A stretch of DNA of 44,488 nt, from the sequence record NC_073055.1; one strand, written 5' to 3'. The notes under the pieces were generated by a model. That model was not told the DNA's origin, did no database searches, and saw nothing but the letters and a program-made list of their open reading frames with translations. Both the position numbers and the translations under genes were made by a program. This DNA is from Escherichia phage vB_EcoD_Opt212. Numbering within the stretch: the stretch's first letter is position 1; each line of letters opens with the position of its first letter. Below, one piece after another: positions 3,597 to 41,183 of the stretch.

Positions 3597-3624
3597 AATA
3601 AAAAGCCCGGAATTAACCGGGCTT
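3597..3624 (-). terminator. rho-independent terminator after lysis cassette
   Basis: stem GCCCGG/CCGGGC followed by U-run on minus strand, directly after stop at 3631. Confidence 0.5.
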
Positions 3625-6422: not shown

Positions 6423-6728
6423 TTATTTCGCAAGCTGGGTGAATAGCTCACGCTGGGCTTTAATCCGGGCGACGTTTGTCACTGCCTTATCGCCAATACC
6501 GAAGCGATATGCCAGGCGCTCGCGGGAGAATGCACGCGCGTATTCGTGGATTGCCTTCGCCAGCGTCTTCAGTTCGTCAAGGCTGGCATCCATGCCGTCG
6601 AGCGCATACATGATTGCCTGCTGGGCCAGTATTACTACATGCGCCGCGCGGTCTGCGTTGCCGTTCAGAGCCTTCGCTTCGTCCAGCTTCGCCAGGGCCA
6701 TTGCGTAATTCCAGATTAATGCTCTCAT
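6423..6728 (-). CDS. hypothetical protein
   Basis: 101 aa, GAGGAC RBS, first gene after long intergenic region. Confidence 0.55.
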   Translation of the reverse strand: MRALIWNYAMALAKLDEAKALNGNADRAAHVVILAQQAIMYALDGMDASLDELKTLAKAIHEYARAFSRERLAYRFGIGDKAVTNVARIKAQRELFTQLAK

Positions 6729-6909
6729 CGTTCAGTCCTCATGTTGGTGTGCAACCAATATTAATCACGCGCATGAAAAAGTTGATCGCTATCTGCTGCA
6801 ACGGCAAACTGCATTTCCCACTCTCCATTATCCAACCCGCATTGGTTGCCTAGTTCATCCGCGACCGCACTTCGCATCATGCTGCCGTGTATTTTGCAAT
6901 CCCCGGATT

Positions 6910-7157: not shown

Positions 7158-7240
7158 GCAACCAATGCGCGCAAAATTTAATCTTTTAGCGATATGGGAA
7201 TTCCCATATCGGCAACCAATACGCGCAAAATTTAATCTTT
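7158..7240. promoter_or_regulatory. 22-bp perfect palindrome CGATATGGGAATTCCCATATCG (7190..7211) flanked by two ~29-bp direct repeats
   Basis: direct reading; repeats GGCAACCAAT(G/A)CGCGCAAAATTTAATCTTT; second copy overlaps primase stop. Confidence 0.7.
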
Positions 7241-9496
7241 CAGGTCGTCATCGGTCGCAGAAAGCGTGATGGGTATATTCGTTTTGATGACTATATTCGA
7301 CGACCCATAGATGGCCCCGGTGTGCGGATCGGTATAAAAACCTAACACTCCGCGCTCAACCATATCGTCTATTGCCTTCGTAGATGTGCCACCTTTTGCC
7401 AATCCCGCCTGGCGGACAATTGCCGATTTGCTGAATCCGGTATGGTCCGGGTTATCTTCCATCAGTTTTTCCAGTGCCGCATAAAGCACTTTCTCTTTTT
7501 CGTTGCGCGGTCCTGCGGCATTCTCGTCCTTAACCGCGGCCTTGCCAGCCGCCTTCGCCTGTTCTATAGCGAACGGTGCCAGGGCGACCGGTACGAGGTA
7601 GAGAGTCTCGTCGCGTGGCGTGGAGGCAATCGGCTTGACGTCCCATCCGGCAACCACGTCGCCGAAGTCTGGCCCGGTGCTGGTGGACTGGTGCGCCTCG
7701 AACGCTTCTGACTTGCGGAGATCCACCTTCACCTTGCACTTGAGCAGGACGAAGCCACGCGGCGCTTGCTTGATGCCGTTACGTGCCTTTTCGTGATACA
7801 GGTTCAATTGGCCTGGCTGGTTGTCGTCCGGCTGTTCCAGGAAGAACGCAGAATCGACAGCGCCATGCAGCGCGCCGGACCCGCGGGGGGTTCTGCTGCC
7901 GTTTGCACCCTTCGCCGGGTGGTGGATGACGCCCGCACTGCCACCTGTATTTTCCGCGATGGCCTTCAGCGCTTTGACCACTTCACCCATATCGCTGGCG
8001 TTGTTCTCGTCGAACGGTTTAGCATCCGCGGACCGCAACGCAACAGTCTGGTTGAGTGAGTCGAACGCCACCAGGCCAACCGGTTCGCCGTTAGCGGTGC
8101 GGTTGATGAAGCTGATAACTTCACGCAAGCCGGATTTGCTGGTGATATCCCAGCCGCGTGATTGCAGATCGATAATGTGCAGCTTGTCCAGGTCGTGCTC
8201 ATATTTAATCTGCAATGCTTCTTTGCGCTGGTTAGAGGCTTCGCCACCTTCCGCGTCGAAATAGAAGCAATGAGACTGGACGACCTTCGCACCGCCGAAC
8301 GGAATACCAGCGGCAACCGCGCCCATCTGCCCCAGCACGTAGAACGATTTACCGATGTTCGACTCACCCGCCATATACCAGGTTGATTTAAAGTTAATCA
8401 ACCCCTCGATAATCGGGTCGTGCTTACTGAACAGCGCAACCGGCTCGTTATCCAGATCCGCATCGGTGCACACGCCGTATTCTTCGCCGTCGCCAACCGC
8501 ATCCACAATATGTTCATATAAGGATTCGACTTCCTCGTCGTCCAGCCCTGGGAGGATGGCGGCGATTTGCTTACGGGACATGTTGTGCGGCTCGACGTTC
8601 AGGTGGTCCGGTATCCCGATGAGACGTAGCGCCAGGTGCTGGTGTCTGTTCAGTTCCGAGCAACACTCGTTGCCGGTGTGCATACACTTGAAACGGATCT
8701 CGCCATCCTTAACCATGATAGCGGTGGACCCTTCACCACTGTGCAGGTGTTCGTTCGGGCATGGCACTTCATAACCACGACCGGACGACAGCGGTTCGAA
8801 TCCTGCCTGGAAGCACCAGTCCAGAATGCCGTCTGCCACTGCGTCGTCGCCCTGGGTAAGCTCGCGGCGTACTTCCTCTTTTTCCACCCCCAGCTTATCA
8901 GCCAGGCGAAGCAGACGACGGACGCGGGCACGTTTGCCGTAGTGACACTTAACAACCGATTGCTGGTGAGGCAGGTACATAAGGCGGTTTGTGTCTTTCG
9001 TGCAATCGTCGAAGTCCACATCTGACAGGCCCAGTTGGTGTAATAGTGCATACTGGACGCGGCCCAGGTCTTCCGCCGGTACAGGCTTGTCAGTGAGCAC
9101 CAGGAAACGAGCGCAACGCGTGCCGCCTTTCAGCGGGTGGCGGTCGCCGGTAGTGGTGTGGAAGACGTGCTCCAGTCCCGCGTCGATGAACGCCTTACGG
9201 CAGCGGCGCAGGGTGCGGGTGTCGGTGCGGTCAATATCAAAGAACAGGATCGAGCGGTCCACGGCACTGGTCTTGCGGCGTAAGCCGTCACGGGTATAAG
9301 CCACAATACCATCAGCCTTACGCTTGCGGCGCGCATACTCCGCTTTATCTTCCGTCTTGTTGATATGCACCGAGGATATTTCTTTCGCATCATTAATAAA
9401 TTCGAAAAACTCATCGGTGGTCATCTGGAAGTTTTCCGCCCTGGCTTTTTCGCCTTTTTTAGCGGGTCGTGTTACAGCGAATTTAATTAAGCTCAT
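7232..9496 (-). CDS. DNA primase/helicase (primase-polymerase-like N-terminus, P-loop NTPase, C-terminal wHTH)
   Basis: 754 aa; Walker A-like GESNIGKSF; Cys/His cluster; acidic FFDIDRTD segment. Confidence 0.75.
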   Translation of the reverse strand: MSLIKFAVTRPAKKGEKARAENFQMTTDEFFEFINDAKEISSVHINKTEDKAEYARRKRKADGIVAYTRDGLRRKTSAVDRSILFFDIDRTDTRTLRRCRKAFIDAGLEHVFHTTTGDRHPLKGGTRCARFLVLTDKPVPAEDLGRVQYALLHQLGLSDVDFDDCTKDTNRLMYLPHQQSVVKCHYGKRARVRRLLRLADKLGVEKEEVRRELTQGDDAVADGILDWCFQAGFEPLSSGRGYEVPCPNEHLHSGEGSTAIMVKDGEIRFKCMHTGNECCSELNRHQHLALRLIGIPDHLNVEPHNMSRKQIAAILPGLDDEEVESLYEHIVDAVGDGEEYGVCTDADLDNEPVALFSKHDPIIEGLINFKSTWYMAGESNIGKSFYVLGQMGAVAAGIPFGGAKVVQSHCFYFDAEGGEASNQRKEALQIKYEHDLDKLHIIDLQSRGWDITSKSGLREVISFINRTANGEPVGLVAFDSLNQTVALRSADAKPFDENNASDMGEVVKALKAIAENTGGSAGVIHHPAKGANGSRTPRGSGALHGAVDSAFFLEQPDDNQPGQLNLYHEKARNGIKQAPRGFVLLKCKVKVDLRKSEAFEAHQSTSTGPDFGDVVAGWDVKPIASTPRDETLYLVPVALAPFAIEQAKAAGKAAVKDENAAGPRNEKEKVLYAALEKLMEDNPDHTGFSKSAIVRQAGLAKGGTSTKAIDDMVERGVLGFYTDPHTGAIYGSSNIVIKTNIPITLSATDDDLKD

Positions 9497-10758: not shown

Positions 10759-10806
10759 TGTATTCCGGCCCGCTAATCTGCGGGCCTATTTTTAGAGGAC
10801 GAGACA

Positions 10807-16984: not shown

Positions 16985-17008
16985 GGCGGGCTTGTCCCGC
17001 CATTTTTG
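16985..17008 (+). terminator. rho-independent terminator
   Basis: GGCGGG/CCCGCC stem then T5. Confidence 0.6.
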
Positions 17009-19213: not shown

Positions 19214-19246
19214 AAGGGTGTTCCGAAGGGAACGCCCTTTTTTTTA
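19214..19246 (+). terminator. rho-independent terminator
   Basis: GGGTGTTCC/GGAACGCCC stem followed by T8. Confidence 0.65.
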
Positions 19247-20435: not shown

Positions 20436-20640
20436 CCGCAGCCTCGCGGTCGTAGACCAAATGCAAAAAGACTTCTGCATCGATCCACGCCGCGATCGTG
20501 TGCATCGCGTGTTGCGGCCTGAACACCTCCTGGGCATGGACCTTACCGGCTGGCTTGTCATAACCCGACGTTGCCATTTCGTGTGTAACTCCTTCACCGC
20601 GCGCAGCGCCCGACAGACCCTTATTGAGAGCTTAAAATGA
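20416..20640 (+). CDS. hypothetical protein (TTG start)
   Basis: 74 aa; GAAGGAGA RBS 6 nt upstream of TTG; overlaps Dam end and next gene start. Confidence 0.35.
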   Translation: MNILIVDRSLAVVDQMQKDFCIDPRRDRVHRVLRPEHLLGMDLTGWLVITRRCHFVCNSFTARSARQTLIESLK

Positions 20641-21107
20641 AACTACTGATTTGTGATCTTGATGGCGTTATTAATGGTTCGAGTGATGCACGCGCCGACC
20701 TGGTTCCGGGTATAAAAACCAAATCAACATTTTGGGCGAAGTGGCACAAAGCGCACGTACGCGAAGACCTGAACATGGATATGCTGCCGCTGCTGCGCAT
20801 GTACAAAGAGCAAGGCTTCGAGATAGCGTATCTGACTAACCGGCAGCGCGAATGCTGGGAGACAACCGCCGAGCAACTGGAGGTCTTCCCCGCAGGGCGG
20901 TTGTTTATGCGCCACATGCTGGACGACACCCCTCCGCCTGAGTTTAAGGCGTGCGCCGTGTTCAAGATGGTCTGCTATGCAGACGTGTCGGAACTGGTCA
21001 TCATTGAAGATTGCGAGAAGAACATCGCGGCAATTCGTCGGGCGTGCAGCGATCTGGTGCCGAAAATTTACGCAATAAATGTTGCAAAATTTACTTGCAA
21101 CCAATAG
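20637..21107 (+). CDS. HAD-superfamily phosphatase/nucleotidase-like protein
   Basis: 156 aa; N-terminal LICDLDGVI (DxDG motif). Confidence 0.6.
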   Translation: MKLLICDLDGVINGSSDARADLVPGIKTKSTFWAKWHKAHVREDLNMDMLPLLRMYKEQGFEIAYLTNRQRECWETTAEQLEVFPAGRLFMRHMLDDTPPPEFKACAVFKMVCYADVSELVIIEDCEKNIAAIRRACSDLVPKIYAINVAKFTCNQ

Positions 21108-21124
21108 GTTGGTTGCACTATAGT
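21095..21124 (+). promoter_or_regulatory. candidate promoter TTGCAA-N18-TATAGT overlapping palindrome TTGCAACCAAT-AGG-TTGGTTGCA
   Basis: direct reading. Confidence 0.35.
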
Positions 21125-21169
21125 TAACGCGTCGGGGCAATATGGCCCCGCGCTAATAAGGACCACATA

Positions 21170-21691
21170 ATGAAAGCATTCGAATACTGCAAAAACGCCG
21201 CCACCACTATGGAGCAGCGCGGAAAAGAAAACGGCTATGACAACGCGAAAGCAGAACGCAGCGCTAAACAGGTCGCCGCCGTGTTTAACGCGCTTACCGG
21301 GCGCGACCTTACCGAGCAAGAAGCCTGGACCTTCCTGATCTGCCTGAAGCTGGTGCGCCAGCACCGTAAGCACCAGGAAGACAATATCGTCGACCTGGTA
21401 GCGTATGCGGCCTTGCTGGGTGAGTCTTACATGACCGTGCATGATGAGATTCAGGTCGATACAACGGCAGCGCAATACGACAGCCTTAAAGGTTGGTCCA
21501 TCGCCACCGCTGGGGCGTGGCATCCTTCGGCATCTGCTGGCAAGACTGTCAAAGCCGCTAATTTCGGCGTCGTATCCCAGGACGTCCAGCCTATGGTCGT
21601 GCTCACCGGCGAAGATGGGTCCAAAATCCTTATGACGCCGGAAGACTTCCGCAACATGGAAAAAACACTGGTACGTAGCGCACTGAAATAA
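21170..21691 (+). CDS. hypothetical protein
   Basis: 173 aa; AAGGA RBS; preceded by leader hairpin. Confidence 0.55.
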   Translation: MKAFEYCKNAATTMEQRGKENGYDNAKAERSAKQVAAVFNALTGRDLTEQEAWTFLICLKLVRQHRKHQEDNIVDLVAYAALLGESYMTVHDEIQVDTTAAQYDSLKGWSIATAGAWHPSASAGKTVKAANFGVVSQDVQPMVVLTGEDGSKILMTPEDFRNMEKTLVRSALK

Positions 21692-21733
21692 TTCTAATCG
21701 CGGGCTTCGGCCCGCATCAATGAGGACCACACG

Positions 21734-22309
21734 ATGTACGGCGAATATGAAATATCCGGTAAACAATTCCACCTGGCGGCAATGATAGCAAGCATCGAGT
21801 TTGACCAATGGCGCTTAAAGTCCGACGCGTGCAAGCAAAGCCGACTGGTCGGTGTGCTGGGCGAAATGTTTGCGGGCATGTACCTTGAAGGGCAAGCAGG
21901 CGGGCGCAGTTGTATCCCGCAAGGCTTGCTCATGCGTACCGGCTTGTTCAGCGCCAATACCATCGACCGCGGCGATATCATCATGGTCGGTAAGCGCAAG
22001 GTTAAATCCGGCACCGACTTCCGCGAGCATGTGATCGATGCCGTCTGGACCTACGAGGTTAAAGCCACCAGCGGCATTCGCCGCGGACTGGTTGAGGCAC
22101 GTTGCGCTCGCGAGTATCTTGCCCGTCGAGTTGCTGGTGTTATCCTGGTGAGCGTAGATTTCGGACAACATAACGCGCACGGCGTGATTGAAGATATCGC
22201 GGAACCATACGTCATCGTTAATGACTGGCCCTTAGTGGAAGTTGAGGGCAAGGAATATTACGAAAGCCCGCTAGTACGGCGCAAAATGGACTGGGAAAAC
22301 TCAAACTAG
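21734..22309 (+). CDS. hypothetical protein
   Basis: 191 aa; GAGGA RBS; preceded by GCGGGC-TTCG-GCCCGC hairpin. Confidence 0.55.
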   Translation: MYGEYEISGKQFHLAAMIASIEFDQWRLKSDACKQSRLVGVLGEMFAGMYLEGQAGGRSCIPQGLLMRTGLFSANTIDRGDIIMVGKRKVKSGTDFREHVIDAVWTYEVKATSGIRRGLVEARCAREYLARRVAGVILVSVDFGQHNAHGVIEDIAEPYVIVNDWPLVEVEGKEYYESPLVRRKMDWENSN

Positions 22310-22343
22310 AAAAAGGGGCCGCATGGCCCCTTCTATTTATTTC
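22310..22343. terminator. bidirectional terminator between convergent blocks
   Basis: AGGGGCC-GCAT-GGCCCCT hairpin flanked by A-run and T-rich tail. Confidence 0.55.
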
Positions 22344-24502
22344 TTCAACGCCGCGATCTCGGCCTTCAAATCCTCCACCTGCTTATTGAGATATTGAACA
22401 CACCCCATCAAGTCCATTACGATCGGGTTAACGTCGATGGATGGGCGGTCCGTCATCTTCTCCCCGATCTTGTTGCCGTCTTCGTCGAGAATATCCTCGA
22501 TCGGGAACTCGTGGTGCTTAACGTACTGCGGCGCAATTAACTCCGCTTCTTCGGCGATAATACCGAAGCGCTGGCGGGCCTGCTCATCATCCTTATACAC
22601 GAAGTTAACAAGGCGCTGGCTGTTAATGCGGTCCATAGCTTCGCTTGCGTCCGCATCGGCTATATCTTTCTTATACTCGCGGCCGGATGTGCCTTGCAGC
22701 GCGATAGTCCCCGATGCGGTAGTCGGGAAGTTAAGCATAATTTCGCCGGTACGGTTCCCATCCTTACGTCGCATAAACAGGCGAAAATATCGAGTGCCGC
22801 TCTTTTCTAGTGCCGGTTCGAAGAACGTCCTACCGCCTACGACGTCGTTCGGCACGGTTTCGCCTACGGTGTAGTACGGTTCGAATGCAAATTGCAGGTA
22901 AGACCCGCGGCTTACTGCCAGGCTACCAACGACATCTGACCCTGAACTGTTCACCGTAAACTTGCCCGGCAAGGTCATCTCGCCTTTGGTGTTAAAGTCG
23001 ATGCCTGAACTCTGCGCCGTCTCCAGGTTAGTGATCGCCAGGCGGGCGTAAGTCTCACCGTCGATATTCGCACGGACGCGCAGCTTTGCTTCCGAGTGTA
23101 AAGAAGTGCCAACACGATATTCAGACACAATGCTTCCGCCGTCTGCCGTAGTGCCCGCTGGCGGTTTAGTGGCGTCGCCGTTGATTACCGACCACGACGT
23201 ATTAGCGGCGGCGAATCCGCCTGACGCTCGAATAACCCACACGCCCATGAAGTTATTGGGGCGCAACTCCGATACGGTCCGGCCATAGATCGCGTTGACC
23301 TTCGAGGCGTCCATGTTAATGATGCCGTAGGAGACTGCGCCGTTACCAACAGGTAGGTTGCCTGGCGACCGATATTGCGAAGCCGCTCCACCAGCCCCGT
23401 GGAACGCGCCACTTTCATGGTTGATAATACTTGCGGCCCCGCCGCCGTGTAATTCGACGCGGCCTGTGATGTTAGGTGCTCCTGATTCGTAGATATACCC
23501 ATCGTTGCCACTTTGCCCGCCGTCGCCCCTGCCGAACAAGCCGAATATGGACCCAGGCTGAACGCCGTTACGGTCCGGCACTCGGAAGGTAGTTGTGCCG
23601 TCACCCGTAGAATACTTGCCGCGCTGATTTGGGTTAGCCAGCCAGGTATCGTCACTAATTGGCGACAGCATTTGCGCATACGCCCACAACTCAGGCCAAT
23701 CAGCGCGGTTAAGAAGTTGCCCGTCGGATACGACTTCATAAGGCTGGATATATGCGCGGCTGTCCCGTAAATGGAAATCACCTACGCCATAGTTCATGAC
23801 GCCGTTCATTGTAGGGCCAACCGTGCCCACGTTGATAAGGTTCTGCACCCAGCGCTTTGTCGCGGCGTCGTAGTCACCTACAGGGTCGCCCGCCAATGGC
23901 GTTGCCCCGTCTGGTCGAACGTTAAGCCAGGCTTGCGGTTTGTCGGTGAGTCCTGCCAGGTTGCCGGATTTGGTTAGCAGGTTATCCGCGTTAACGCTTT
24001 GCGCCCACTCCTCGGCCTGATCGCGGAATCCCTGCGCTGCGGATTTCGATGCTTCGGCTTGCGCTGCGAGGTCGCGCATCTCAACGGGGTCTACGTTCTT
24101 AAGCAATTCCGACAGATATCCCCATGACATGCCCTGCATAACCTGCCCGTTAGGTAACGTCACTGTGATTTCTTCAGCGTCGCCGAAGATTGCACGCCAG
24201 TTGTTTTCATCTGCAATCATCAAGCGCAATGCTTTTTGCGCCTGTACGGTAACGCCCATCGTTGCCAGTGACATGGTGTCGCGCTTAACACCATCCCAAG
24301 CAAGGCCGGTTGCCGTTGGGCCGTCGAACGGCAACACCAGCGTAAGCGCCGTGTTACTTTCGATTGATGCGATCGCCACTGTGTAAGGCACTTGTCCTAC
24401 CACCAGCGTTAAGAAGTCGCCAGCTTTAAACGCGGTAAACGTTGTGCCGACTCCTACTACCGCCGTGCTATTGTTCGTTACGGATAGCGTACCCGCTGCC
24501 AT
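22337..24502 (-). CDS. side tail fibre with C-terminal intramolecular chaperone (S74-like) domain
   Basis: 721 aa; Gly-rich central region; C-terminal GTSGREYKKDI...RFGIIAEEAELIAP pattern. Confidence 0.7.
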   Translation of the reverse strand: MAAGTLSVTNNSTAVVGVGTTFTAFKAGDFLTLVVGQVPYTVAIASIESNTALTLVLPFDGPTATGLAWDGVKRDTMSLATMGVTVQAQKALRLMIADENNWRAIFGDAEEITVTLPNGQVMQGMSWGYLSELLKNVDPVEMRDLAAQAEASKSAAQGFRDQAEEWAQSVNADNLLTKSGNLAGLTDKPQAWLNVRPDGATPLAGDPVGDYDAATKRWVQNLINVGTVGPTMNGVMNYGVGDFHLRDSRAYIQPYEVVSDGQLLNRADWPELWAYAQMLSPISDDTWLANPNQRGKYSTGDGTTTFRVPDRNGVQPGSIFGLFGRGDGGQSGNDGYIYESGAPNITGRVELHGGGAASIINHESGAFHGAGGAASQYRSPGNLPVGNGAVSYGIINMDASKVNAIYGRTVSELRPNNFMGVWVIRASGGFAAANTSWSVINGDATKPPAGTTADGGSIVSEYRVGTSLHSEAKLRVRANIDGETYARLAITNLETAQSSGIDFNTKGEMTLPGKFTVNSSGSDVVGSLAVSRGSYLQFAFEPYYTVGETVPNDVVGGRTFFEPALEKSGTRYFRLFMRRKDGNRTGEIMLNFPTTASGTIALQGTSGREYKKDIADADASEAMDRINSQRLVNFVYKDDEQARQRFGIIAEEAELIAPQYVKHHEFPIEDILDEDGNKIGEKMTDRPSIDVNPIVMDLMGCVQYLNKQVEDLKAEIAALKK

Positions 24503-25808: not shown

Positions 25809-25830
25809 TTAAAAAGGGGCCGAAGCCCCT
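25809..25830 (-). terminator. terminator/attenuator-like hairpin after gpJ-like gene
   Basis: AGGGGC-UUCG-GCCCCU hairpin followed by U4 on minus strand. Confidence 0.35.
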
Positions 25831-35740: not shown

Positions 35741-35763
35741 AAAAAAGGGGCCGTGCTGGCCCC
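35741..35763 (-). terminator. rho-independent terminator after major tail gene
   Basis: GGGGCC/GGCCCC stem followed by U6. Confidence 0.6.
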
Positions 35764-38573: not shown

Positions 38574-38599
38574 AAAAAAAAGGCGGGCATAAGCCCGCC
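38574..38599 (-). terminator. rho-independent terminator after major capsid gene
   Basis: GGCGGGC-UUAU-GCCCGCC hairpin followed by U8. Confidence 0.7.
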
Positions 38600-40608: not shown

Positions 40609-40638
40609 TTGCAATCCGCGTATTGGTTGCACTATATT
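40609..40638 (+). promoter_or_regulatory. candidate promoter TTGCAA-N18-TATATT with tandem ATTGGTTGCAC motifs
   Basis: direct reading; upstream of plus-strand island. Confidence 0.4.
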
Positions 40639-40667
40639 GGTTGCACACCAACAACGAGGACACAAAA

Positions 40668-41183
40668 ATGAGACTGACAAAAGACATTAAAAACCAGATT
40701 CTGGCTAACATCCTGCGCGACCACGAAATCGCGACCGAAGCCAAATCAATCATGATGGACTCTCGAAATCTGGCGTACGCCATTACGATGGACTGTATGC
40801 CGGAAGGCATTCATTCGTTCGCCGAGCTACGTGAGCGCATTGCAGCAATCGGCGGTGACCCGTCGCAGATGTACGGCGTCTGTGTGTACACCAACAAGGC
40901 GACGTATAGACATGACGCCGACAGCCCATATGGTGTAGGCAGCGTTTACGACGCCACTTTCGAAATCAACGCAGGCGGAAACGTCCGTACCGTGTCATTG
41001 AGCGGAGACGGACACCGAGTCCGAGTATATCGCGGATACGGGGAGTATAAATACATGAATAAACTGTCTCCCGATCTCGGCGATATTGTGCCTGGGTATG
41101 AGGAAATTTTGTTAGCGTCAGTGTGCGAAGTCGATGACGACGGGAAAGCGCTGCCGATATATATATGCCACGCGGTCGTATAG
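40668..41183 (+). CDS. hypothetical protein (opposite-strand island gene 1)
   Basis: 171 aa; GAGGAC RBS; no recognisable motifs. Confidence 0.55.
   Translation: MRLTKDIKNQILANILRDHEIATEAKSIMMDSRNLAYAITMDCMPEGIHSFAELRERIAAIGGDPSQMYGVCVYTNKATYRHDADSPYGVGSVYDATFEINAGGNVRTVSLSGDGHRVRVYRGYGEYKYMNKLSPDLGDIVPGYEEILLASVCEVDDDGKALPIYICHAVV

Follow-up and report, generated by a model that had tools for sequence, protein, structure and literature searches.

Two stem-loops without U-runs frame a Dhillonvirus gene as candidate mRNA stability elements

Stem-loops that stabilize E. coli mRNAs from their 5′ ends were reportedly described by Emory, Bouvet and Belasco in 1992. A 5′-terminal stem-loop in E. 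coli hinders RppH and 5′-end-dependent RNase E and thereby extends mRNA lifetime (PMC5927463). The ompA leader stem-loop hp1 and that of papA after RNase E cleavage resemble the first of the two hairpins considered here (hairpin 1), which is likewise a stable stem-loop, is predicted to lie ~2 nt from the 5′ end of its transcript and is likewise constrained in its pairing and not in its loop. Hairpin 1 differs from the processed papA end in that its own end would be primary (triphosphate) at a predicted start, and from the ompA/papA type in being dispensable in a lineage in which the promoter and the hairpin are deleted. Selective processing and stabilization by intercistronic structures are also documented in E. 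coli (PMC5927463). The second hairpin (hairpin 2) compares in this respect with the malE-malF REP and the menBCE hairpins, being similarly stable, conserved, tail-less and located in the spacer that follows the first gene of a co-transcribed pair; it is, however, far smaller than REP elements (6 bp and a tetraloop) and just 6 nt from the next Shine-Dalgarno (SD) sequence, and any stabilization by it is predicted. C(UUCG)G hairpins in intercistronic regions of phage T4 are said to have been reported by Tuerk et al. in 1988. Hairpin 2 shares with them an extra-stable tetraloop closed by a C-G pair and lies in a phage spacer as well, but bears no sequence relationship to the T4 hairpins and most likely represents the same structural solution reached independently. 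With Rho-independent terminators, of which this genome has many true examples, it has in common a GC-rich stem-loop that follows a stop codon, whereas here it is the absence of the U-tract that is conserved. Finally, the T4 gp43 operator and the MS2 coat-protein hairpin are leader hairpins near a ribosome-binding site, as are those described here (PMC3014915), which differ in being clear of the SD and AUG, in lacking a conserved hairpin 1 loop and in having no known binding protein. Both hairpins are undescribed instances of well-known kinds of element.

The sequence analyzed (hereafter the window) is the whole 44,488-nt record NC_073055.1 of Escherichia phage vB_EcoD_Opt212. A sequence search with 1.8 kb around both hairpins matched 155 phage records at 84–94% identity, nearly all of them Dhillonvirus phages (HK578-like siphoviruses) of Escherichia whose genomes measure ~44–45 kb, from which the window is judged to be one essentially complete genome of this genus of HK578-like coliphages. 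The local order of features on the plus strand is a Dam methylase gene, a 74-aa ORF, a phosphatase gene, gene A, gene B and a terminator, followed by a convergent tail-fiber gene [Table 1]. The phosphatase gene matched Pfam Acid_phosphat_B at 3.5e-5, which is under the gathering score, and PHROG 415 ('polynucleotide kinase') at 3e-36. Searches of Pfam, NCBIfam and PDB sequences with the gene B product returned no match. In phage WFI, the site equivalent to that of the terminator after gene B is annotated as a terminator. Genes A and B are predicted to form a small promoter-to-terminator unit in which a promoter, hairpin 1, gene A, hairpin 2, gene B and the terminator follow one another. A promoter belonging to gene B itself, which would make hairpin 2 5′-terminal, is unlikely, the only candidate being a TGaAATAAT sequence that arises from Leu-Lys-stop codons, lacks a −35 element and has a TG that is not conserved. 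Scanning of the whole window with the Rfam 15 covariance models at the gathering score yielded no match, a permissive Rfam run on 20900..22450 gave chance-level matches only, and ARAGORN found no tRNA or tmRNA genes.

Table 1 Features of the region around genes A and B.
Feature	Position	Strand	Description
Upstream gene	20637..21107	+	HAD-type phosphatase / polynucleotide-kinase-like; Pfam Acid_phosphat_B, PHROG 415
Palindrome	21081..21101		GTTGCAA-N7-TTGCAAC; exact match; sole perfect copy in window; conserved in relatives
Promoter	21095..21124	+	Sigma-70-like, TTGCAA-18-TATAGT; consensus scan, 9/12 matches
Palindrome	21096..21117		TGCAACCAA-TAGG-TTGGTTGCA; two of 11 exact genome copies of the 9-mer
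Hairpin 1	21129..21153	+	Leader stem-loop, 3 bp + bulge + 6 bp, 6-nt loop, no U-run; GCG 21129-21131 pairs with CGC 21151-21153 and CGGGGC 21133-21138 with GCCCCG 21145-21150; U21132 bulged; loop AAUAUG
Gene A ribosome-binding region	21158..21172	+	AAGGACCACAUA-AUG
Gene A	21170..21691	+	173 aa; DUF6378 / PHROG 9871
Hairpin 2	21700..21715	+	Intercistronic, GCGGGC-UUCG-GCCCGC, no U-run; GCGGGC 21700-21705 pairs with GCCCGC 21710-21715; UUCG loop
Gene B ribosome-binding region	21722..21736	+	GAGGACCACACG-AUG
Gene B	21734..22309	+	191 aa; PHROG 10558; no known domain
Terminator	22313..22332	both	Bidirectional, intrinsic, between gene B and the convergent tail-fiber gene; ends the two-gene unit

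A preliminary description of this DNA had placed GC-rich hairpins, the second with a UUCG tetraloop, before the two genes, and RNA folding bore this out. Hairpin 1 has a folding energy of −18.5 kcal/mol (z = −3.35) and hairpin 2 one of −13.6 kcal/mol (z = −4.16), none of 200 shuffled sequences being as stable in either case. All perfect hairpins with a stem of at least 6 bp were surveyed across the genome together with a terminator scan. Strong hairpins (dG ≤ −10) numbered ~15 between genes and 7 within coding sequence, and were far denser between genes; from this density, the presence of hairpins 1 and 2 is beyond chance. GC hairpins followed by a T-run were found between genes at 3603(−), 10767, 16985, 19214, 22313, 25815(−), 35747(−), 38582(−), 39793(−) and 41440(−), while the strong intergenic hairpins devoid of one were hairpin 1, hairpin 2 and a hairpin at 7190..7211. 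As the preliminary description had noted, neither hairpin of interest carries a terminator-type U-run: just two T residues were counted in the 8 nt past the stem, whichever strand was read, and the terminator scan listed neither, which sets both apart from most hairpins of this genome. No T-run is present in any relative either, the tails there reading ATCAATGA, AGCAATGA, AACCTGAA or ATCATCGA. Assignment to canonical intrinsic terminators is disfavored in that the GC stem-loop is present but a U-run (~5 or more of 8 residues) is absent here and in the relatives, and assignment to RNase III sites of the T7 type, with stems of ~20 bp or more, was rejected as the stems are just 6 bp long in one case and 9 bp with a bulge in the other.

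The two hairpins had been described as similar. As a matched pair they are not: no stem or loop sequence is common to both, and the stem of hairpin 1 changes among relatives with its pairing mostly retained, while hairpin 2 is invariant. Hairpin 1 starts 4–8 nt past a −10 box, TATAGT ending 8 nt before the core stem, and this spacing is conserved in relatives. The promoter to which that box belongs has an 18-nt spacer, which is suboptimal, on top of its imperfect match to the consensus [Table 1], but it is conserved in every relative retaining hairpin 1; a purine lies 7 nt past the −10 box in almost all relatives, and the gene A transcript is predicted to start near 21131. The core of hairpin 1 was present in all 19 distinct leader haplotypes of alignment A1, all of which retain the promoter. 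Pairing was assessed by folding each haplotype separately, the arms being out of register in the MAFFT alignment A1 owing to indels in the G/C runs. The stem versions thus retrieved, GGGGC/GCCCC, GGGGGC/GCCCCC and GGGAGGC/GCCTCCC, have arms of matched length, whereas five of the six columns of the loop vary, within a 6-nt RAUAYN pattern. At one stem position, slur05 and L068 have a compensated A-U pair in place of G-C, while SO-1, L013 and LM40P1 have a mismatch there. Taken together, these changes point to selection on the pairing of hairpin 1 and not on a recognition sequence, the covariation signal resting on that one stem position.

The promoter and hairpin 1 also travel and disappear together. 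In LM40P1, the phosphatase gene is missing and yet the promoter and hairpin 1 still precede gene A as a module. Hairpin 1 is absent only where the promoter is deleted, namely in L017 and L082, in which one deletion takes out both and leaves a 17-aa remnant ORF, with which gene A is coupled by overlapping it at ATGA. Since these two phages manage without it, the module is accessory and hairpin 1 dispensable.

Hairpin 2 begins 8 nt past the gene A stop codon and ends 6 nt ahead of the gene B SD. Its C(UUCG)G core, GGGC-UUCG-GCCC at 21702..21713, was invariant in every sequence retrieved. Only one of its 16 columns varied in 21 distinct genomes, the sole change being a single base in Sodalis phage SO-1. 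For comparison, variation affected 19 of the other 26 intergenic columns, 78–83% of the third codon positions of the flanking genes and even 11% of the second codon positions of gene B; finding at most one variable column in 16 at the neutral rate has a binomial P of ~3e-8. Even in the most divergent genomes (L017/L082 and LM40P1), whose gene A and gene B proteins are 74–78% identical, hairpin 2 is the same while its flanks are wholly different. A metagenome scan with an invariant 17-mer of gene A returned mostly chance matches and five extra Dhillonvirus loci, in which hairpin 2 was again identical; a scan of viral contigs with an 18-mer returned six loci, five of them from contigs already sampled. 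Because hairpin 2 is invariant, covariation is absent from it, and invariance alone does not set an RNA structure above a sequence-specific site. The orientation of the UUCG loop, on the other hand, was never reversed, whereas the center of a DNA palindrome 600 nt upstream is reversed in L010 and L011, a contrast that favors a function of hairpin 2 on plus-strand RNA. Klebsiella and Enterobacter phages carry distant gene B homologs that overlap the preceding gene and are accompanied by neither gene A nor a hairpin; hairpin 2 is therefore specific to the Dhillonvirus gene A/gene B junction. More than 119 unrelated viral contigs nevertheless contain the exact 16-mer, which very often separates a stop codon from an SD there, and ~19% of these copies have at least five T residues in the next 8 nt. 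Judged from these occurrences, the 16-mer is a generic element, though a junction-specific one in Dhillonvirus.

The preliminary description had also drawn attention to the ribosome-binding context shared by the two genes. Both do have AGGACCACA, which occurs exactly twice in the window (21159-21167 and 21723-21731), each copy ending 2 nt before an ATG; but the shared GAGGACCACA is not conserved before gene A in relatives. Each hairpin lies 5–7 nt ahead of AGGACCACA-NN-ATG, and the SD and AUG of both genes are unpaired in the minimum-energy fold. The usual SD in this phage is GAGGA or AGGA located 7–8 nt before the ATG, AGGA being found in 21 and AGGAC in 5 of 61 genes. Among the 1830 gene pairs, a 9-nt run at the same offset was shared by genes A and B and by one unrelated pair (11058 and 17021), so that the shared 9-mer appears to be above chance only marginally. 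Upon local alignment of the 48-nt leaders, that of genes A and B scored 22 and ranked about tenth, other hairpin-bearing leaders scoring 24–31; given that a score of 22 is no outlier among hairpin-bearing leaders, duplication or homology of the two leaders was rejected as a necessary explanation. Before gene A, the AGGACCACA version is limited to one sub-lineage made of the window, L010-L012 and L107, while gene A is preceded in most Dhillonviruses by AAAAAGGGTAATACTGTG and in others by AGGAGACAAACCATG, AGGAAAACATCATG or AGGATAACATCATG. The ribosome-binding segment of gene B reads GAGGGCCACACG, GAAGGATCCACA, GAGGGATTCACA or GAAGGAGTTTAATC among relatives. Being limited to a sub-lineage before gene A, AGGACCACA is therefore no conserved element; it is an ordinary AGGA Shine-Dalgarno sequence and spacer, and its match between genes A and B arose by chance or by a short local exchange of sequence.

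With moderate confidence, we favor the view that the hairpins are separate, ordinary RNA stem-loops framing gene A, the one a 5′ and the other a 3′/intercistronic mRNA stability element. Of the two roles that had been proposed for them, RNA processing or stability on the one hand and operation on translation on the other, the former fits the anatomy and conservation best, and a translational operator common to both is unlikely for the reasons given below. The effects on RNA ends, cleavage and stability that we infer are as follows. Hairpin 1 would form at the extreme 5′ end of the transcript issued from the TTGCAA-18-TATAGT promoter, the predicted start leaving ~2 unpaired nt ahead of the CGGGGC stem, and, once in this 5′-terminal position, could limit the action of RppH and of 5′-end-dependent RNase E and so lengthen the life of the mRNA. 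Because hairpin 2 has no U-tract, RNA polymerase should read through it. Endonucleolytic cleavage might then take place in the AU-rich flanks, after which hairpin 2 would block 3′-to-5′ exonucleases and protect the gene A segment in the manner of malE-malF; equally, it could shield the 5′ terminus of the gene B segment once cleavage has occurred, in the manner of papBA, and either mode of protection would set the gene A:gene B expression ratio. Direct reading of the sequence of this genome revealed no strong RN↓WUU RNase E motif beside hairpin 2. Literature searches on the promoters or transcriptomes of Dhillonvirus, HK578 and SECphi18 returned nothing usable and no mapping of transcript ends.

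Attenuation of transcription into genes A and B by the hairpins, as pause sites or as non-canonical intrinsic terminators that leak, weaker members of the class found at other junctions, is unlikely without being negligible. GC hairpins located right before an SD do recur in this genome, six others lying within ~25 nt of a start codon (at 10767, 16985, 19214, 25815(−), 35747(−) and 38582(−)), and hairpin 2 resembles one of them, GGGGC-UUCG-GCCCC at 25815..25830(−), with a leader that aligns to its own with a score of 24. Intrinsic termination, however, requires a U-tract. All six of these hairpin-then-SD junctions bear a T-run, with 4–8 T residues in the 8 nt past the stem compared to two at hairpins 1 and 2, where the U-tract is missing in every relative as well. 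The annotation of phage WFI, similarly, has terminators at two of the six sites and none at hairpins 1 and 2. The location of hairpin 1 downstream of its own promoter also speaks against an attenuating role.

Slightly less probable, in our estimation, is an action of the hairpins on translation, whether as repressor operators, as insulators of the SD or as aids to coupling between the gene A stop codon and the gene B SD. The geometry is alike at both genes (hairpin, 5–7 nt, AGGA, 7 nt, AUG), and the invariance of hairpin 2, loop included, is compatible with sequence-specific recognition. Furthermore, the gene B SD-AUG segment became less accessible upon in-silico disruption of the 5′ arm of hairpin 2, with a mean unpaired probability that fell from 0.70–0.73 to 0.53–0.60. 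Part of this effect, though, stems from the GC-rich arm that is freed, and disruption of hairpin 1 had a negligible effect (0.87 versus 0.82); an accessible SD is predicted in every context, whether or not the hairpins are present. In addition, neither hairpin overlaps an SD or AUG, both of which lie beyond the stems by the 5–7 nt just mentioned; the absence of a common stem or loop, the free drift of the hairpin 1 loop and the lack of conservation of AGGACCACA before gene A also speak against an operator shared by the two genes, and no candidate RNA-binding regulator was identified.

The hairpins could also mark the boundaries of mobile gene cassettes, the SD context then being a recombination scar of little present function; as an alternative to a role in mRNA stability, this is doubtful. 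It is supported by L118 and phage Lzu_P1, in which hairpin 1 and gene A are separated by an additional 74-aa gene, itself followed by its own U-less hairpin, GGCCCC-GAAA-GGGGCC, the insertion in L118 being flanked on each side by AGGAAAACATCATGAAA. A Nouzillyvirus homolog of this extra gene also ends in a UUCG hairpin, and from these instances small genes in these phages can be seen to move with a 3′ tetraloop hairpin. Relatives also show highly mosaic SD-to-ATG patches, and the occurrence of gene B homologs without gene A or a hairpin in Klebsiella and Enterobacter phages is likewise consistent with cassettes. Traveling 3′ hairpins and mosaic patches could thus be the origin of an SD context common to two adjacent genes. 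A functionless scar, in contrast, would not keep 15 of 16 columns invariant beside neighbors that are ~75% variable, nor would the pairing of hairpin 1 be maintained through paired changes in its stem. Cassette movement, in fact, explains the origin of the hairpins rather than their function, and is compatible with the stability elements that we favor.

Improbable, to a somewhat greater degree, is the further proposal that hairpin 2 is invariant because its sequence is specifically recognized by some factor of the phage or host, which might be a dedicated processing nuclease or an RNA-binding regulator, and that hairpin 2 makes up, with the TGCAACCAA operators and hairpin 1, a post-transcriptional switch for genes A and B. 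A role of these features as DNA elements or on the opposite strand is highly improbable, because the hexamers of the promoter-like TTGATG-18-TAGAAT found on the minus strand (21720..21691, 9/12 consensus matches), of which hairpin 2 would be the 18-nt spacer, are not conserved (the flanks become AACCTGAAGG and TCATTAATA in relatives) while hairpin 2 is, and because hairpin 1, although promoter-proximal as lambda boxB is, has no boxA upstream, no GNRA-like pentaloop but a variable 6-nt loop, no evident N-like protein to go with it and no Rfam match as a nut/boxB-like antitermination site.

Should the stability elements that we favor be correct, this locus would provide a compact natural case in which a protective 5′ hairpin and a 3′/intercistronic C(UUCG)G hairpin without a U-run frame a phage gene, would help annotate transcription units in Dhillonvirus and would offer engineered phages a ready-made means of adjusting expression. 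No new question is opened by it, as the mechanisms involved belong to textbook E. coli biology and the 16-nt hairpin is recurrent in many unrelated phages. A more promising lead than the hairpins is the TGCAACCAA motif, found at most intergenic promoter regions of the genome, for which no description was found in the literature searched and no regulator was identified. The promoter before gene A overlaps both palindromes listed in Table 1, as do the final codons and stop of the phosphatase gene, and the TGCAACCAA-TAGG-TTGGTTGCA palindrome looks like an operator within the promoter spacer; the inversion of its center to CCTA in L010 and L011 is as expected of a symmetric DNA site. Exact copies of TGCAACCAA number 11 in the genome against ~0.3 expected for an exact 9-mer, and with one mismatch allowed the count is 24, compared to a mean of 11.8 in 100 shuffled sequences, none of which attained 24. 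Every exact copy lies between predicted genes, and several are located in or beside the 17–18-nt spacers of other promoter-like sites, an enrichment and placement which argue that the stretch before gene A is a regulated promoter region.

The interval upstream of gene A (DUF6378), with a leader hairpin lying between promoter and gene A (hairpin 1), varies in gene content among related phages. In two related sequences, L017 and L082, the region some 100 nt in front of gene A carries a deletion running from within the 74-aa ORF located upstream of the phosphatase gene to just past hairpin 1; the phosphatase gene is lost, and so are the promoter and hairpin 1. In both sequences gene A overlaps a 17-aa remnant ORF via ATGA, and the hairpin between genes A and B (hairpin 2) is still present. 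In L118 (1..400) and in L266, corresponding to phage vB_Eco_Lzu_P1 (560..940), hairpin 1 is separated from gene A by an additional, inserted 74-aa gene, which has distant homologues among Rtp and Nouzillyvirus phages and is followed by a U-less hairpin of its own, GGCCCC-GAAA-GGGGCC; the direct repeat AGGAAAACATCATGAAA is present on both flanks of the insertion in L118.

In L010 and L011 (phages Gluttony and Sloth type), the TGCAACCAA palindrome at the equivalent of window 21096..21117 has an inverted 4-nt centre (TAGG to CCTA). Owing to this inversion the phosphatase gene lacks its stop codon, and the ORF thus extends across hairpin 1, ending at a TAA immediately 5′ of the gene A SD.

Within gene A, the stretch ATGGAAAAAACACTGGT (window 21656..21672), 28 nt upstream of hairpin 2, showed no variation across all fetched Dhillonvirus sequences, third codon positions included, compared to about 80% variable third positions nearby. 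A processing site might include ATGGAAAAAACACTGGT, or the stretch might belong to another nucleotide-level signal. On the opposite strand, the hexamers of a promoter-like site surrounding hairpin 2 [see table] are not conserved in divergent relatives.

Elsewhere in the genome, six GC hairpins besides hairpins 1 and 2 are found inside co-oriented gene blocks with a start codon within about 25 nt downstream. Because all six have a T-run behind the stem and an SD after that, they look like leaky terminators placed directly against the next ribosome site. The C(UUCG)G type recurs in one of them, at 25815(-). The 9-bp hairpin of the table has on either side a copy of AAAGATTAAATTTTGCGCG(Y)ATTGGTT(G), a direct repeat (region 7160..7250).

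The 9-mer TGCAACCAA/TTGGTTGCA occurs in 11 exact copies in the window versus about 0.3 expected, all of them intergenic with respect to the genes predicted in this analysis, and several copies are contained in, or adjoin, the 17-18-nt spacers of sigma-70-like promoters. A literature search on the motif returned nothing relevant. The motif resembles an operator for a putative phage regulator or, alternatively, a promoter element specific to the phage. Separately, the leaders of two different genes on opposite strands are nearly identical over about 25 nt, with the sequence TTGGTTGCACACCAAC-A(WS)-GAGGAC.

Positions of motif copies, promoter-like sites, leaders and hairpins in the window
Feature	Position	Strand	Remark
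TGCAACCAA/TTGGTTGCA, exact 9-mers	3580, 6218, 6750, 10030, 19181, 19198, 21096, 21109, 24519, 40623, 40637		
TGCAACCAA/TTGGTTGCA, degenerate	3557, 12912, 12928, 16740, 16752, 7122, 7157, 7211		
TTGGTTGCA-N-TATAKT (sigma-70-like, 9-mer in/beside spacer)	21109, 40623, 19198		
TTGACA..TATCAT	10014		sigma-70-like, 9-mer in/beside spacer
TTGACT..CATACT	3594	-	sigma-70-like, 9-mer in/beside spacer
TTGACC..TAGATT	about 12900		sigma-70-like, 9-mer in/beside spacer
TTGATG-18-TAGAAT	21720..21691	-	promoter-like; hairpin 2 inside 18-nt spacer
Shared leader	6720..6760	-	
Shared leader	40637..40682	+	
GC hairpins	10767..10786, 16985..17001, 19214..19239	+	close upstream of start codon
GC hairpins	25815..25830, 35747..35763, 38582..38599	-	close upstream of start codon
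CGATATGGG-AATT-CCCATATCG	7190..7211		9-bp hairpin, no T-run
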